Assembly (NCBI RefSeq): GCF_006345805.1
Contig: NC_043000.1
Location: 6,200,001 to 6,264,000 of the forward strand
Origin: Octopus sinensis
Taxonomy: Eukaryota
Reading direction: 5' to 3'
DNA: 64,000 bases
The notes below the pieces were generated by a model. That model had not been told where the DNA came from. It searched no databases and was given only the letters and a program-made list of their open reading frames with translations. Of the stretch, positions 3,746 to 59,647 are shown piece after piece. A program made the position numbers and the translations under genes. Every line of letters starts with the position of its first letter. The stretch's first letter is position 1.

Positions 3746-3854
3746 AATTGTGACTGAGCGTGCAGGGTAGCACCTTCTCTTATTTCTAGCTGTGTAGAAT
3801 TAGTTACAATTGAATTATATGTGTGTGTGTATATATATGTATGTATATATATAA

Positions 3855-6630
3855 CGAGGTAGTCAGAGTAAGTGATAGAGTACTTAAGATTAGATTAGTG
3901 CTTCACCATAGGTCAGCTACTATCATCTCGGCATATGCCCCTCAACCAGGGCTACCGGAAGGACACAAAGACCAATTCTATGACACCCTATTGCGGACTA
4001 CCTCGTTGACAAATGACAGTGACCTCCTCTTCGTGGCAGGTGATTTCAATGGACATGTTGGACGGCATGTCGGGGGCTTCCATGGCGGGCATGGAGGCTA
4101 CGGTTTTGGCTCTCGTAATGAGGAGGGAACCAGGCTGCTGGAGTTCTGTGATGCAAATGACCTTATGGTCTGCAATACCAACTTCAGGAAACCCACCTCT
4201 CACCTAGTCACCTACCGTTCTGGCAGACACACTAGCCAGATTGACTACATCCTTGCCAGAAAAAGGGAAAGAGGGCTGCTTATAAATGCCAAAACCTTTC
4301 CAGGTGAAGAATGTACTCCTCAACATAGATTAGTAGTTAGCGACTTCAGGATCAGAGCTAAATGGTTGCCCAGAAGAAGACCTGCTTGGAGGAGAAGGGT
4401 CTGGAAGCTTAAGATCCTGCAAATGGACAGAGATTTAGAGACATACTACTCGAAGCCTTTGACGAATAGAAGGGGATATAGCTTCACTTAATGTGGAAAG
4501 CAACTGGAGATTTCTACGGGACAATCTGCTGACAGCCACTGACCAGATCTGTGGATGGAGCAAAGTACCATCTCGACCCAGAGTAACATGGTGGTGGAAC
4601 ACTGTGGTTGACAGGGCTATTAGACAAAAGAGACAGGCTTGGAAGGACTGGAAGAACGGTGGTAGCAGGGAATGGTATCTCACAGCTAGAAGGGAAGCTA
4701 GGAGACAGGTTTATTTAGCCAGAGGAGAAGCGGATAAGAAAAAATTTGCCAATGTTCTGAGCCGTGAGGATGAAAGACTTGAGGTATTTCGTGTTGCAAG
4801 ACAGTGTGTGAGAGAGAATCGTGATGTGGTAGGAGAGAAGTGTGTTCGCATGGATGATGGTTCACTTGCGCTAAATGAGGATGCAAAGAGAGAGGTTTGG
4901 AGATGCCACTATGAAAGGTTGCTGAATAAAGAAAATGAATGGGATATAAGAGAGAGTCTGCCGAATGTTGACCCTACAAAGGACCAGCTATCCGAGTTGA
5001 TAGTTCCGTGGTAGCTAAGGCAATTAGAAGCATGAAGACAGGGAAAGCCCCAGGCCCATCAGGAACTACTGCAGAGATGCTCAAAATATCTGGCAGTGTC
5101 GGCTATAACCTAGTCACCCGTATAGTCAACCAGGTGATACACGAAGGAGTCATACCCAATGACTGGTGCAGCAGCATACTAGTCAACTGCTACAAAGGTA
5201 AAGGTGATGCCCTAGATACAATAATTACAGAGGTATCAAGCTGTTGGATCAAGTAATGAAGGTTACGGAGAGGGTCATAGCCCAACTAATTAGAGAGAGA
5301 GTTAGTTTAGATGAGATGCAGTTTGGGTTCGTGCCAGGGAAAAGTACCACTGATGCTATATTCCTGGTAAGGCAGCTGCAGGAGAAATACCTAGCCAAAG
5401 ATAAGCCCCTGTACCTGGCTTTCGTTGACATGGAGAAAGCTTTTGATAGGTCCCCCGATCCTTATCTGGTGGTCAATGAGGAAACTAGGGATAGATGAAT
5501 GGCTGGTGAGGACTGTGCAAGCCATGTACAGAGATGCCGTAAGTAAGGTTAGGGTTGGCAACATGTACACAGAAGAATTCAAAGTAGAGGTTGGGGTCCA
5601 CCAGGGTTCAGTACTCAGCCCCCTCCTATTTATCATAGTACTCCAGGCAATTACGGAGGAATTCAAGACAGGCTGTCCCTGGGAGCTCCTCTACACTGAC
5701 GACCTTGCTATTATTGCTGAGTCACTATCAGAACTGGAGGAGAAGTTCCAGGTGTGGAAGGAGAGTTTAGAATCAAGGGGCCTTAGAGTCAACCTAGCTA
5801 AAACCAAAGTACTAATAAGTAGGAAGGTAGACAATCCACAAATGTCTTCAGGAAGATGGCCCTGCTCGATCTGTAGAAAAGTGTAGGTAGAAACTCTATA
5901 AGATGTACCCAGTGTAAGCTATGGACACATAAGAGGTGCAGCAATGTCAAAGGTAGGCTAACTGGGAGATAGTTTTTGTATGTGGCAGATGCTCGGGAGC
6001 ATTAACCTCCGAAAATCTGCAGAAAACAACTTCCGTCACTTTCCAGGGGGAAAAACTAGAAGTAGTTGATAGCTTCCGTTATCTAGGTGACCAAGTCAGT
6101 AGTGGGGGTGGTGCGCTGAAAGTGTAACTGCTAGAATAAGAATAGCCTGGGCAAAGTTTAGGGAGCTCTTACCTCTGCTGGTGACTAAAGCCTCTCGCTC
6201 AGAGTAAAAGGCAGACTGTATGATGCGTGTGTAACGAACAGCCATGCTACATGGCAGCGAAACATGGGCCGTGACTGCTGAGGACATGCGTAAGCTCGTG
6301 AGGAATGAAGCCAGTATGCTCCGATGGATGTGTAATGTCAGTGTACATACTCGACAGAGCGTTAGCACCTTGAGAGAAATGTTGTACCTAAGAAGCATCA
6401 GTTGTGGTGTGCAAGAGAGACGATTGCGCTGGTATGGTCATGTGGCGAGAATGGATGAAGATAGGTGTGTGAGAAAGTGCCAATCCCTAGCAGTTGAGGG
6501 AACCCGTGGAAGAGGTAGACCCAGGAAAACCTGGGACGAGGTGGTGAAGCACGACCTTCGAACTTTAGGCCTCACTGAGGAAATGACCAGCGACGAGACC
6601 TTTGGAAATATTCTGTACGTGAGAAGACCA
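3855..6630 (+). pseudogene. Frameshifted RTE ORF2: APE endonuclease, reverse transcriptase with an inserted PHD finger, and C-terminal domain
   Basis: Consecutive ORFs 3823-4491, 4493-5014, 5008-5256, 5244-5498, 5425-5886 and 6244-6693 join through 1-nt frameshifts. Confidence 0.9.
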
Positions 6631-7300
6631 GGCAGGACAAGTGCCCAGCCCACTTATGAATGCTTTCCTCCCTTGGACACAAAGACCTGTTGAGGCAAGC
6701 GAAGTCGATATAGAACCTCATCCGACGACAGACAACCCATGCCAACCCCCTTTGCTTGTGAAGACATGTTGGGGCAAGCGAAATCGAAATCAAATTGAAC
6801 CAGCCAGGATCCCTGGTCTGGTGGACGTAAAAGCACTATCCGACTCGTGCTGTGGCACGTAAAATACTCCAATGCGACCGTACGACAGGTACTCATGCCA
6901 CCCCCTTTGCTTGTGAAGACATGTTGGGGCAAGCGAATCGAAATCGAAATCGAATTGAACCAGCCAGGATCCCTGGTCTGGTGGTACGTAAAAAGCACTA
7001 TCTGACTCGTGGCCGATGCCAGCACCGCCTCGACTGGCTTCCGTGCCGGTGGCACATAAAATACACCAATCCGACCGTGGCCGTTGCCAGCCTCGCCTGG
7101 CACCTGTGCAGGTGGCACGTAAAAAGCACCCACTACACTCACGGAGTGGTTGGCGTTAGGAAGGGCATCCAGCTGTAGAAACATTGCCAGATTAGACTGG
7201 AGCCTGGTGCAGCCTTCTGGCTTCCCAGAACCCCGGTCGAACCGTCCAACCCATGCTAGCATGGAGAACGGACGTTAAACGATGATGATGATGATGATGA
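3855..7300 (+). mobile_element. RTE-clade LINE, 5'-truncated in the endonuclease, with a long 3'UTR and (GAT)n tail
   Basis: APE motifs (SAYAPQ, AGDFNGHVG, SQIDYIL) and RT motifs (KAPGPSG, QFGFVPGKSTTDAIF, FVDMEKAFD, GVHQGSVLSPLLF, YTDD, FRYLG). RTE C-terminus LRWYGHV..RGRGRPRKTW. Flanked on both sides by (TA)n. Confidence 0.95.
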
Positions 7301-13084: not shown

Positions 13085-13570
13085 AAGCTAACCGGCTTCC
13101 GTGCCAGTGGCACATAAAAGGCATCATTCGAGTGTGATCGTTACCAGCATCACCTTACTGGCACTTGTGCCCGTGCTAGTAGGGTGCCAAAAGCACCATC
13201 TGAGCGTGATCGTTGCCAGAGCGGCTAACTGGCTTCCGTGCCGGTGGCACATAAAAGGCACCATTCGGGCGTGATTGTTACCAGCGTCGCCTTACTGGCC
13301 CTGTGCTGGTGGCATGTGTAAAAAGATTCGAGCGAGGTTGTTGCCAGTGCCGCCTGACTGGCCCTGTGCTGGTGGCACTTAAAAAGCACCCACCACACTC
13401 TCAGAGTGGTTGGCGTTAGGAAGAGCATCAAGCTGTAGAAACATTGCCATATCAAGATTAGAGCCTGGTGCAGTGATCTGGTTTGCCAGCCCTCAGTCAA
13501 AATCATCCAACCCACGTTAGCATGGAAAGCAGACGTTAAAAGATGATGATGATGATGATGATGATGATGA
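13085..13570 (+). mobile_element. RTE LINE 3'UTR fragment with about 5 repeat units and a (GAT)n tail
   Basis: GTGC-N-GGTGGCAC-TAAAAAG-CACC cores, then TGGCGTTAGGAAGAGCATC, GACGTTAAA and (GAT)n, as at 7000-7300. Confidence 0.85.
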
Positions 13571-36694: not shown

Positions 36695-37175
36695 GTACAA
36701 GGAGTAATTTTGAGGAGAGGGGATCAATCAATACCATCGACCCCAGTGTATGACTAGTACTTTATTTTATTGATCCCAGGGAAATGAAAGGTAAAGTTGA
36801 TCCTGGTAGGAATTGAACTCGGAATGTAAAGTTGATCCTGGTAGGAATTGAACTCGGAATGTGAAGTTGATCCTGGTAGGAATTGAACTCGAACAAATAC
36901 CACAAAGCATTTTTAATGATGCTCTAATGAATCTGCCAGCCTTAGTAAATAATTATTTCTACAATGAGCACAAGGCCTGAAATGTGTTGGCGGGAGTGGT
37001 GGGAGGCTAGTTTGTTGCATTGATTCCAGTGTTCAGCTGGTACTTGTTTTATTGATTCCAAACAGATGAAAAGCAAAGTCGACCTTGGCAAAATTTGAGC
37101 TCAAAACATAGAGTGCTGGAAGAGAGGTCATTCAGCATTTTATCTCGGATGCTAATGATTCTGTCAGCTACCACC
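36695..37175 (-). mobile_element. Two SINE family B copies
   Basis: Meta-like core. One copy has an internal 35-bp triplication. Confidence 0.75.
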
Positions 37176-37184
37176 TTTCTTTTA

Positions 37185-38005
37185 TCATCATCATCGTCGT
37201 CGTTTAATGTCTGCTTTCCATGCTAGCATGGGTTGGACGATTTTGACTGAGGGCTGGCGAACCAGATGGCTGCACCAGGCTCCAATCTGATCTGGCAGTG
37301 TTTCTACAGCTGGATGCCCTTCCTAATGCCAACCACTCCGAGAGTGTAGTGGGTGCTTTTATGTGCCACCGGCACGAGGGCCAGTCATGTGGTACTGGCA
37401 TCAGCCACACTCAATGGTGCTTTTACATGCCACCTGCACAGGAGCCAGTCCAGCGGCACTGGCAACAACCACGCTCGAATGGTGCTTTTTACATGCCACC
37501 TGCACAGGAGCCAGTCCAGCGGCACTGGCAACAACCACGCTCGAATGGTGCTTTTTACATGCCACCTGCACAGGAGCCAGTCCAGCGGCACTGGCAACGA
37601 CCACGCTCGAATGGTGCTTTTTACATGCCACCTGCACAGGAGCCAGTCCAGCGGCACTGGCAACAACCACGCTCGAATGGTGCTTTTTACATGCCACCTG
37701 CACAGGAGCCAGTCCAGCGGCACTGGCAACAACCACGCTCGAATGGTGCTTTTTACATGCCACCTGCACAGGAGCCAGTTAGGCAACACTGGCAACAATC
37801 ATGCTCAAATGGTGCTTTTAACCTTCCATTGGTACAGGTGCCAATCAGGCGGTACTGTCATTGGCCACGACAGTGATTTCACTTGCTTCAAAAGGTCTTC
37901 ACAAGCGTAGTTTATTGTCCAATGATTGAAGGGTACTCTTAAATGGGCTGGTTATACAGTACTGGCATAAGCCATGGTTATGGTCTCACTTGGCTTGCTG
38001 GATCT
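37185..38005 (-). mobile_element. RTE LINE 3'UTR fragment with an expanded repeat array
   Basis: (CAT)n tail at the left, the conserved 3' terminus, and the array at 37352-37860. Confidence 0.85.
37352..37860 (-). repeat. Tandem array of 8 units of about 66 bp (5 near-identical)
   Basis: GGTGCTTTT cores start at 37352, 37416, 37481, 37547, 37613, 37679, 37745 and 37811. Confidence 0.95.
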
Positions 38006-42139: not shown

Positions 42140-42617
42140 TCATCATCATTGTCATCATCGTTGTTTAACGTCCACTTTCCATGCTAGCATGGGTTGGACG
42201 ATTTGACTGAGGACTGGCGAACCAGATGGCTGCAACAGGCTCCAATCTTGATCTGGCAGAATTTCTACAGCTGGATGCCCTTCCTAACGCCAACCACTCC
42301 GAGAGTGTAGTGGGTGCTTTTACATGCCACCGGCACGGGGGCCAGTCAGGCAGTACTGGCAACAGCCACACTCAAATCTTTTTACACATGCCACCGGCAC
42401 AGGTGCCAGTAAGGCGATGCTGCTAACGATCACGCTCAAATGGTGCCTTTTAAGTGTCACTGGCACGGAATCCAGTTAGCCACTCTGGCAACGATCACGC
42501 TTGGATGGTGCTCTTAGCACCCTACTAGCACAGGGCTCAAGTGCCAGTAAGGCGACGCTGGTAACAATCTCACTTGAAAAGGTACCTTTTATGTGCCACT
42601 GGCACGGAAGCCGGTTG
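42140..42617 (-). mobile_element. RTE LINE 3'UTR fragment with about 5 diverged repeat units
   Basis: Same unit order as 13085-13570, in reverse complement. Confidence 0.85.
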
Positions 42618-43611
42618 GGAATTTAAAAAATGGAATTTAAAAAATGGAAATTATATAGTTAAAGGAGTGTCTATACATTACTAATTCATGAAAGAGTTTT
42701 ATGACATTTTTCTAGATTAACATTTTGTCAGTCCTCCCCCTCCTCCTCCTTTTCATCATCATCATCATCACCATTTAAATGTCTACATTTCTATGTTTGT
42801 ATGGGTCAGATGAGAGAACACTGAAGCAGAGTTTTCTATGGCCAGATACCCTTCCTGTATCAAACCCTACTTGTTTCTAAGTGAAGTAATGATCTTCTGG
42901 TCTATCAAATAACAAACAGTTTGGACATGTTTACATGTAAAACTAGAAATAAATGACACCATAGGGACGAGCCTTTTGTTTACAAACATTACACAAGACA
43001 TGTCATAATGCCTAGACATGCTCTCATGGCTGACTGCAAGTAAATGACACCAACAGTGTGGCCATTGTTTACAATCAACAAACACATGTGAAGACAAAGC
43101 AAATATGAACCCACACATACACACACATATACACATGCCTGTGCACACACACACACGTATACAGAGTACGTTTTAAAAGAAAATGAACTTAAACAAAATT
43201 TAATCATTAGTAAAATGTTCAAAATAGATTTGCTCCAATATAATTAATTTGCCTAATGGAAAGAAAAGTAGCTTCAGGTTTTACTAGTTTAAAACATTCA
43301 AGCCAAACCAACAAAATCTCACTATGTTGTCATTCAAGTTGCTAGAAATAGCAACCAAATCTCCTTTTAATTATACCTTACTATCTTTAAACAAATCAGG
43401 GTTGGGAAGGAGGCATACAGGTATAAAAAAAAAAGGATGAGAATGTCACACCTCAAATGCTTTTGTACATAGGTCTACCTGATAAAAGCTGACCTGGGGC
43501 TAAATAATAACAACTGAGTTTCATGCACTTTCTCTCTATCAGAAATGAAAATAAATTCACATGAAAAGATTCTTAAAGACCTGTAACTGAATAAGTATCA
43601 GGATAAATATT

Positions 43612-45365: not shown

Positions 45366-45548
45366 ATAGTAAAAGAAGTTAAACAGAACCAGCACATGTG
45401 TTTATTATTGGCACAGTGACTGTCCCAGTTTACAACAAAATCTGTTTCAACACATTGATTTCACATCAAGAATCCCACAAGCCAAACACAAAAATAAAAT
45501 AATTACAGCACATGCTTCTGAGAAAGGTTTCTAATAAAAGTGTCTTAC

Positions 45549-46009
45549 CTGTATGGAAGGGATGGTATTTTCAACCACAGATATTTCACTATCTATGTCA
45601 ATATCTTGGCTATCAGACTGTATCTGTTGAAGCAAAGTATCCTGTTGTAGGTCTGCTATTTGAGGAGTTAGTGACGGGTCACTATGACTATGTTCTCCGT
45701 TTAATTGCATGATTCTGTGCTGCAACTCAACAGGTGCAAAAAGAACATCGTAGTCCGGAGAATTCCTATTCAGGTTTGATGTGCTAAAAATATTTGGTTG
45801 ACTTCCACAGAGGTTTTCAACTTCACTTTTGATACCTTTGCGTTCTCGACTCTTCCCACGTATCCTTTCAGTGGATTTTCGAAAACTATCCCACAGCTTT
45901 TTCCGGCGACTAACAGTTGGGGGAGATGCAGTTGGTGAAAGTGTTTCATCTTTGCTTAGATCTCCAGAACTTTTAGCTTTTCTCCCCTTTTCTTTCTTTT
46001 TTTTTGGTC
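45549..46009 (-). CDS. Internal coding exon of a host gene (basic/Ser-rich, likely disordered N-terminal region; weak resemblance to MCTP-family N-termini)
   Basis: 461-nt open frame in non-repetitive sequence (PKKKKEKGRK..RRKKLWDSFRKSTERIR..CGSQPNIF..IPSIQ). Acceptor TTGTTTACAG at 46011-46010 (phase 1) and donor CAG|GTAAGA at 45549/45548 (phase 0). Confidence 0.8.
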
Positions 46010-46126
46010 CTGTAAACAATAAAACACACCATCAAAATATATGATTTAATTAATAATTAAACACATGGTTTATCAAATATACAGAGACACACAAACATAT
46101 ATTTATAACTTTTATTTATCTTCTAT

Positions 46127-58139: not shown

Positions 58140-59647
58140 CTTTTACTTTTTTCAGGCATGTTGACAGTGGCCATGCTGGAGTATCACCTTTTTAGTCAAA
58201 GCAATCGACCCCTGGACTTATTCTTTGTAAGCCTGGTTCTAATTCTATCAGTCTCTTTTGCCAAACTGCTGAGTTATGGGGACGTAAACACACCAACGTT
58301 GGTTGTCAAGTGATGGTAAAGGGACAAACACAAATATATACTATATATATATATATATATATATATCATCATCATCATTTAGCATCCATTTTCCATGCTA
58401 GCATGGGTTGGACGGTTCAACTGGGGTCTGGGAAGCTGGAAGGCTTCATCAGGCCCAGTCAGTTTCTACGGCTGGATGCCTTTCCTAACGCCAACCACTC
58501 CGTGAGTGTAGTGGGTGCTTTTTACGTGCCACCTGCACAGATGCCAGACAGAGCTGGCAAACGGCCACGAACGGATGGTGCTTTTACGTGCCACCGGCAC
58601 GAGGGCCAGGCCAGGCTGGCAACGGACACGAGCGGATGGTGCTTTTACGTGCCACCGGCACGGGGGCCAGGCGAGGCTGGCAGCGGACACGAACTGATGG
58701 TGCTTTTACGTGCCACCGGCACGGAGGCCAGACGGGGCGGTGCCGACAATGACCATGATCGGATGGTTCGCTTAACCACAGCTGCAATTTCCACTGATGT
58801 TGATCGACCTCAATTTTGGTTCTGCTTTCTGATATCTGATTTGATTTGGTTTGATTTTTATTTTGATTTTGACTGTTCTCACTGGTCTTGCCGGGTCTTC
58901 TCATGCACAGCATACTTCCATAGGTCTCGGTCTCTAGTCATTTCCTTGGTGAGACCTAAAGTCTGAAGGTCGTGCTTCACCACCTCGTCCCAGGTTTTCC
59001 TGGGTCTACCTCTTCCACAGGTTCTCTCAACTGCTAGGGTGTGGCACTTTTGCACACAACTATCTTCACCCATTCTCATCACATGCCCATACCAGCGCAG
59101 ACATCTCTCTTGCACACCACAACTGATGCTTCTTAGGTCCAACTTTTCTCTCAAGGTACTTACACTCTGTCGATTATGAACACTGACATTACACATCCAT
59201 CGGAGCATACTGGCTTCATTTCTTGCAAGCTTACGCATATCCTCAGCAGTCACAGACCATGTTTCACTACCATGTAGCATGGCTGTACGTACACATGCAT
59301 CATACAGTCTGCCTTTTACTTTGAGCGAGAGGCCTTTTGTCACCAGCAGGGGTAAGAGCTCTCTAAACTTTGCCCAGGCTATTCTTACTCTAGCAGTTAC
59401 ACTTTCAGCACACCCACCCCCGCTACTGACTTGGTCATCTAGGTAGCGGAAGCTATCAACTACTTCTAGTTTTTCTCCCTGGGACTGGTTTCTTTCACCT
59501 TCCAACTACCAAATCCACTCACAAGGCTTTGGTCAGCTGGAGGCCATAGTAGAAGACTTGCCTAAGCTGCCACGCAGTAGAACTGAACTCAAAACCATGT
59601 GGTTGGGAACCAAGTTTCTTACCACACAGCCACACAGCCACACCTGC
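58140..59647 (-). mobile_element. SINE A split by an RTE LINE insertion (halves at 58140-58365 and 59487-59647)
   Basis: The family A 3' half and 5' half flank the LINE at the central (TA)n. Confidence 0.8.
58366..59485 (-). mobile_element. 5'-truncated RTE LINE, same family as 3855-7300
   Basis: Uninterrupted ~200-aa frame (QGEKLEVVDSFRYL..RGRPRKTWDEVVKHDL) nearly identical to 6045-6630. The 3'UTR has 4 repeat units and a (GAT)n tail. Confidence 0.95.

Follow-up and report, generated by a model that had tools for sequence, protein, structure and literature searches.

The window considered in this work is a stretch of 64,000 nucleotides from Octopus sinensis (contig NC_043000.1, positions 6,200,001 to 6,264,000, forward strand), and positions given without a locus label refer to it. 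At 37352-37819 the window contains a tandem repeat, which TRF reports with a period of 66, 7.1 copies and 94% matches. The initial annotation described an array of ~66-nt units here, each with two sequence motifs; the array exists, and both motifs are present as described. On the minus strand, the region 37352-37876 consists of eight units that bear a core: a degenerate unit comes first, six of a single type follow, and a distinct unit stands last. The example core listed in Table 1 offers two interleaved stems whose loop lengths fit an H-type pseudoknot, namely stem 1 of 5 bp with two G-U pairs, a 1-nt loop, stem 2 formed by GGTG/CACC, and a 7-nt A-rich loop.

The array lies in the 3' UTR of an RTE LINE, the setting that had been supposed: the host copy starts at the last ORF codons, and the same RT C-terminus lies upstream in nearly all sister copies displayed. 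This copy (37184-~38005) is 5-9% diverged from its subfamily majority, its best other genomic match over the whole copy reaches 85%, and no clear target-site duplication was found for it. The other copies previously noticed in the window were recovered, with cores at 7042, 7105, 13365 and 58539 and three further units up to ~58720, and the TAAAATA variant of the A-rich loop is present in the core at 7042. A second local expansion is found nearby at 36791-36891, where a 35-nt unit is repeated 2.9 times (98%) within another SINE-like repeat. In addition, 45534-46031 on the minus strand contains an exon-like open frame of 166 aa, and the array may sit, in sense orientation, in an intron of the gene to which this frame belongs.

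Table 1. Positions of the array, its host LINE copy and related copies in the window
Feature	Position	Strand	Remark
5'-truncated RTE LINE copy	37184..38005 (5' end approximate)	-	last ORF codons, whole 3' UTR, (GAT)n tail
LINE ORF stop codon TGA	37986..37988	-	same position in sister copies having the RT C-terminus upstream
First unit, degenerate, type U1	37811..37876	-	stems partly broken in the lineage as well
Six type-U4 units	37416..37810	-	hairpin GCCAG/CTGGC and core
Example core	37679..37704	-	predicted H-type pseudoknot
Last unit, type U5	37352..37415	-	unit class with core intact in every lineage type
Domain homologous to RTE 5' UTR (leader) segment	37293..37334	-	38/42 identity to locus L231
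3'-terminal stem-loop and (GAT)n	37184..37239	-	likely the true reverse-transcriptase priming signal
Near-full-length RTE copy, younger subfamily, 3' UTR array	3814..7290	+	cores at 6974, 7042, 7105
Truncated RTE copy, four units	58367..59490	-	tandem repeats and cores in the window
3' UTR-only copy, several unit types	13090..13570	+	tandem repeats and cores in the window
3' UTR-only copy, several unit types	42150..42610	-	tandem repeats and cores in the window

The LINE family has endonuclease and RT domains (Pfam PF14529 and PF00078), and open frames of 1042-1043 aa are found in its loci L078, L079 and L088. It shows the traits of RTE elements: a single ORF with an APE endonuclease and RT, a (GAT)n tail after a terminal stem-loop, and 5'-truncated copies. 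Judging from this anatomy and from the likeness to RTE leaders and tails, the family is assigned to the RTE clade. A metagenome scan with the RT C-terminus returned ten distant loci, none of which has the unit, and searches of viral contigs with four patterns returned zero, zero, one (a chance match in a phage ORF) and zero matches. Just before the ORF, loci L075-L090 contain a pyrimidine tract followed by AG, which resembles a 3' splice site at the ORF start, and tandem duplications occur in their 5' region. Inside the LINE RT region at 5860-5990 (plus strand) there is a cysteine-rich, zinc-finger-like insert.

Unit number varies freely among young full-length copies, including those with higher-order repeats of ~190 nt. 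Tandem units of ~28, 63-66, 99 and ~190 nt are seen in the family, and all of these lengths include the core, a pattern consistent with slippage there. The core is not a product of chance, since a 25-nt pattern of it has 39,734 exact matches in the 2.72-Gb genome as against none for the reversed pattern, and since a strict pseudoknot template fits once in a real 740-nt UTR as against 0.003 times per shuffle. The terminal stem closes with CG-TTAAA both at 37239-37202 (minus strand) and at 7240-7285 (plus strand); the unit core has the same motif, so the core could mimic the 3' end.

Five type-U4 units are 0-1 of 66 bases apart, while the parts of the copy outside the array differ from the subfamily majority at 10/190 and 18/209 positions. 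The local run is therefore younger than the insertion, and the recent amplification of five near-identical units that had been proposed is borne out. Sister copies contain 0-1 type-U4 units in 25 of 29 cases, two in three cases and three, the maximum, in one; 134 of the 146 unit clusters in 950 kb of contiguous blocks, chosen as dense in this LINE family, have 1-4 units. A locus-specific, homogenised expansion that is younger than the insertion is what distinguishes a TE-derived minisatellite, and the run at this locus is very probably a neutral minisatellite of that kind. Contigs of four runs break at the repeat and so give no reading on polymorphism of array length. By itself, the flagged array is ordinary. 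The functional array of knots envisaged in the initial annotation is not supported here: the amplified units have a stem 1 weakened by two G-U pairs, and their expansion took place locally, after the insertion.

Elsewhere in the genome the same 66-nt unit forms three giant arrays of ~130, 84 and at least 83 copies (73-127 scored units), up to ~8.6 kb long. Each of them (L201 at G000:C12:49210347-49218988, L202 and L203) still ends in a LINE tail, and they are likely length-polymorphic markers. None of their 282 scored units keeps the GGTG strand of stem 2; all read AGTG, a stem-breaking variant. Inserted copies were also compared by CpG decay, for which 275 of 377 units could be assigned to a lineage type: pair-breaking decay is found at 55/284 sites and decay outside stems at 146/916 (p=0.20), with tolerated decay at 40/214. 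Since GGTG is lost throughout the giant arrays and decay rates are alike in and outside stems, inserted copies and their expansions are blind to structure. Locus L152 (G000:C1 near 11217400-11218450) contains a 99-nt unit, repeated in tandem ~11 times, in which an old-family core is joined to the leader-derived domain described below.

These data bear on the proposal that arrayed knots serve as exonuclease blocks or small-RNA precursors, with selection acting on the array as such. In its favour, nucleases can be blocked by compact pseudoknots, and RNA-seq contains much sequence of this LINE family (in run X21, one of three runs from one study, 41,300 of 12.9 million records), the reads being unstranded and coming from many copies. 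However, the units amplified here and in the giant arrays are weakened or broken, and searches of the region at E<=10, of five young loci and of the whole window gave no relevant Rfam match. Moreover, no defined read ends or read-end pile-ups occur in any of the three runs, although their long unstranded libraries make this a weak test. No indexed record containing the stretch is listed as RNA, which counts neither way. We consider this proposal highly improbable.

Among the source lineages the core is constrained, its stems being kept and its loops free. Clustering of 657 of 685 units yielded 39 types that occur at three or more loci, and changes were counted by parsimony on 31 distinct types, six with non-homologous leaders and two duplicates having been dropped. 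Per non-CpG column there are 0.29 changes in stem 2, 0.5 in the hairpin stem and 0.83 in stem 1, as against 1.43 in the A-rich loop, 3.2 in the linkers and 3.6 in the hairpin loop; overall, the rate of change among lineages is some 4-10 times lower in stems than in loops and linkers. The excess conservation of GGTG/CACC over the loops is thus found at the lineage level, as the pseudoknot prediction had anticipated. The 1-nt loop between the stems (N) takes A, C, G and T, with 4 changes after CpG masking; it had been listed as C, A or T, which was right as to its freedom and incomplete as to its bases, G being a lineage variant as well. N=T and the Y positions of stem 1 were considered as covariation and rejected; they are largely CpG decay and therefore not evidence for structure. 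Pseudoknot pairing is possible in 28 of the 39 lineage unit types, including 13/13 last-unit types (one is misclassed, and the clusters are not independent), and among the inner unit types 11 of 26 contain a broken pair.

Conceivably, nothing in the unit is selected. It would then be a neutral VNTR whose stems seem conserved through RT mutation and slippage concentrated in the loops and through profile seeding on intact cores. The profile was indeed seeded on core-bearing units, a bias toward core conservation, and the free variation of unit number among young copies and the range of tandem unit lengths given above are what such a VNTR would show. Seeding bias does not, however, explain the free base between the stems: a single-base loop flanked by two near-invariant stems takes all four bases. 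Furthermore, both stems are kept in every last-unit type, and a similar layout occurs in SINEs and RTE leaders of distant phyla. We give this account little credence and regard it as very unlikely.

Whether the conserved stems form a pseudoknot is a separate matter. The H-type core predicted by the initial annotation stands insofar as the pairing is possible in most types, the stems are conserved and N is free; it does not stand as to covariation in young families, where two-sided change is seen in 0/4 pairs of stem 2 (35 sequences). In the 35 real representatives, 93% of cells are paired in each stem. The terminal pair of stem 1 varies (U-G in 14, C-G in 9, U-A in 9), a pattern that CpG decay can mimic, and two-sided changes of the hairpin in the alignment likely come from three leader-type rows that are possibly non-homologous. 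In an older family the junction base is C, so that stem 1 loses one pair and stem 2 gains it (726 exact matches); stem 2 can also be lengthened there. Among the first 100 of 1,370 matches to this family, position 47 has a Watson-Crick partner at 66/67 in 82 copies (shuffled mean 52): G is found with C at 67 in 50/55, T with A at 67 in 19/31, and A with T at 66 in 9/13. These complementary changes in the extended stem 2 are suggestive only, because they represent about three related lineages, two registers are allowed, and 9 of the 31 T47 copies read TC and have no partner.

Without a pseudoknot, the RNA would form nested hairpins (stem 1, GCCAG/CTGGC and CCAT/GTGG), and GGTG and CACC would owe their conservation to a protein that recognises their sequence or to common descent. 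The invariance of stem 2 alone also fits protein recognition of sequence, and nested hairpins agree with the lack of stem-2 covariation in young families. They also agree with the folding energies at N=C, where the nested minimum-energy fold (-8.6) matches or beats the knot (-7.0 to -8.9, a rough estimate). For the six amplified units the knot is estimated at -3.4 to -5.2 kcal/mol as against -3.3 for the nested fold, using rough penalties and no coaxial or tertiary terms. Pseudoknot energies are within 1-3 kcal/mol of the hairpins, and the stability predicted for the knot is marginal. Over whole UTRs, nested ensembles give both stems probabilities of 0.00-0.40, which means that the knot has competitors; the highest nested probability, up to 0.84, is that of the GCCAG/CTGGC hairpin. 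Excess stability of nested folds was not seen, either for the whole copy (z +1.0) or for pieces of it (z -0.8 to +1.0). The Nin/Snail domain and the second Deu motif, which keep stem 1 and the A-rich strand without this stem 2, likewise suit the nested hairpins. On the other hand, alternative partners of GGTG/CACC are far more variable than the stem-2 partners (column 38 has 8 changes and column 64 has 0), lineages with N=A or G lose the extra hairpin pair, and the old family has the complementary changes described above. On balance, we find nested hairpins alone somewhat unlikely. An upstream CACC as the partner of GGTG and the CCAT/GTGG hairpin were tried as candidates and rejected, their pairing being less conserved than that of stem 2.

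The origin of the module can be approached from the 42-nt domain behind the last unit. At L231 its counterpart directly precedes an endonuclease ORF of the same type, and a SINE that has a tRNA head and a similar tail (L232-L235) contains the domain as well. Loci L231-L235 are eukaryotic RTE and tRNA-SINE sequence in contigs filed as bacterial MAGs, likely by contamination. By eye, the leader domain of the present copy (37334-37293) may hold a stem, an A-rich strand and a second stem; the loop GGCA and a downstream TGCC are kept, and the linker varies. In hagfish RTE-2_EBu, the leader domain is preceded at the 5' end by a twister-ribozyme-like string (PMC7245038, supplement 2). In this LINE the core array takes the place of that string; the leaders of hagfish RTE-2 and RTE-4 carry the leader-domain motif (PMC7245038, supplement). 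The leader domain and core are absent from the shared 5' region of the LINE itself (first 1250 nt of 20 long loci), where matches lie only in older neighbouring elements. The layout of body motif, RTE leader piece and RTE tail is known for SINEs from Kojima 2018 (PMC5786205). Because of the leader match, and because published SINE bodies of moth, hagfish and squid show by eye the core's arrangement of stem, A-rich strand and second stem, the 3' end of the LINE was likely captured from a SINE-like element. A different abundant element at 42780-42870 (minus strand) has the leader domain and tail without the core; the core is thus not needed for all RTE-mobilised elements here.

The explanation that we favour, and consider reasonably probable, is that the locus is the tail of a dead RTE copy in which a unit multiplied after insertion, and that the core is a real RNA pseudoknot borrowed from a SINE-like element and kept in active lineages. 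The original 3' end of the LINE would have given way to a tail from a bipartite RTE or SINE-like RNA. In the source RNAs, at least the last core would form an H-type pseudoknot whose A-rich strand packs against stem 1. This knot would most likely be a site at which the protein-RNA particle of the element itself docks or is compacted. Reverse transcription would be primed apart from the knot, by the terminal stem-loop and (GAT)n, to judge from RTE tails in PMC6007223, where RTE 3' hairpins are described. Young copies would come to differ in unit number through slippage around the core. Once a copy has inserted, unequal exchange or slippage would produce local runs such as this one and, elsewhere, runs of more than 100 units. 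The parts of this model are not equally firm. That the knot folds and is selected in the source RNA may be put at slightly below an even chance, and its protein-docking role is doubtful. The unit core is a credible candidate for a structured module.

In its predicted compact H-type build, with a 5-bp stem 1, a 1-nt loop, a short stem 2 and a 6-7-nt A-rich loop, the core resembles luteoviral frameshift knots, preQ1-I and pistol P1. It differs from these in that it lies outside any ORF, has no slippery site and has no Rfam match at E<=10. As an expansion of retroelement tandem units, the array is comparable to the SVA VNTR. Satellites from retroelement 3' UTRs are well known, as PMC9659126 relates for PisTR-A from Ogre and for the cetacean L1 satellite. 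There, as here, tandem units of a 3' UTR expand into homogenised arrays; the unit here has, in addition, a conserved structure-compatible core. The present family shows one LINE tail seeding kilobase minisatellites, and its core is a mark of tens of thousands of genomic loci represented among transcripts. Compared by description only, the octopus RTE LINE of Petrosino et al. 2022 (PMC9115989) is of the RTE clade, with an ORF of ~1100 aa and UTRs of ~600 nt. The accessible text of that paper describes no 3' UTR repeats ('tandem' has 0 matches).

The likeness to the Nin/Deu SINE domains that had been pointed out holds at the motif level. By eye, the Deu/Nin/Inv domains and the HaSE1 body contain a stem CGTS...SACG followed by TWAAA, as in the core. 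Again by eye, the moth SINE HaSE1 and the first Deu motif combine a 5-bp stem, a 3-nt loop and a TWAAA strand with a second stem of 4 bp, GG..CC, placed in pseudoknot order; the letters that pair are not those of the core, and they differ among moth, hagfish and human. A longer-looped version offering GTGC/GCAC is seen by eye in IdioSINE2 and in vertebrate RTE leaders; as noted above, the second Deu motif and the Nin/Snail domain keep stem 1 and the A-rich strand only. Note that the likeness extends over ~23 nt and was judged by eye, that the loop lengths differ between the SINE domains and the core (shorter loops here), and that the 70-330-nt domains are otherwise missing. A search of this genome with the exact Deu-type pattern gave 0 matches. 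A tRNA- or 5S-derived head, the trait of Deu/Nin/Inv elements, is replaced in copies of this family by the RT C-terminus upstream. In the literature we found no paper that joins a pseudoknot with the Deu/Nin/Inv domains or quotes the motif, and repeat databases may already annotate the unit.

Why the middle domains of SINEs stay conserved across phyla is stated to be unknown in the accessible passages of PMC4824008 and PMC5804259. A bolder possibility, which we think quite unlikely, is that the core is the minimal version of an ancient fold, namely a short H-type pseudoknot that a CG-UWAAA A-minor strand closes. This fold would also be present in RTE leaders and in Deu/Nin/Inv SINE bodies from insects to humans, would here have been multiplied in a LINE tail, and would be the functional unit of the conserved domains. 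If so, the fold would be a handle for, e.g., a retrotransposon protein or the ribosome, and a 26-nt unit would make the conserved-domain question directly testable. The closest known systems are the bipartite RTE-derived SINEs and non-autonomous RTEs, in which, according to PMC5786205 and PMC7245038, a body motif likewise precedes a piece of RTE 5' UTR and a 3' tail of RTE type. In contrast to these, the module described here belongs to an autonomous LINE whose ORF is intact, and it makes up the 3' UTR of that LINE; it lacks a tRNA head, and its body motif is repeated in tandem. A 26-nt structure-compatible core that has probably been captured by such a LINE, and is kept intact by it, offers a small and testable candidate for the conservation of SINE domains.
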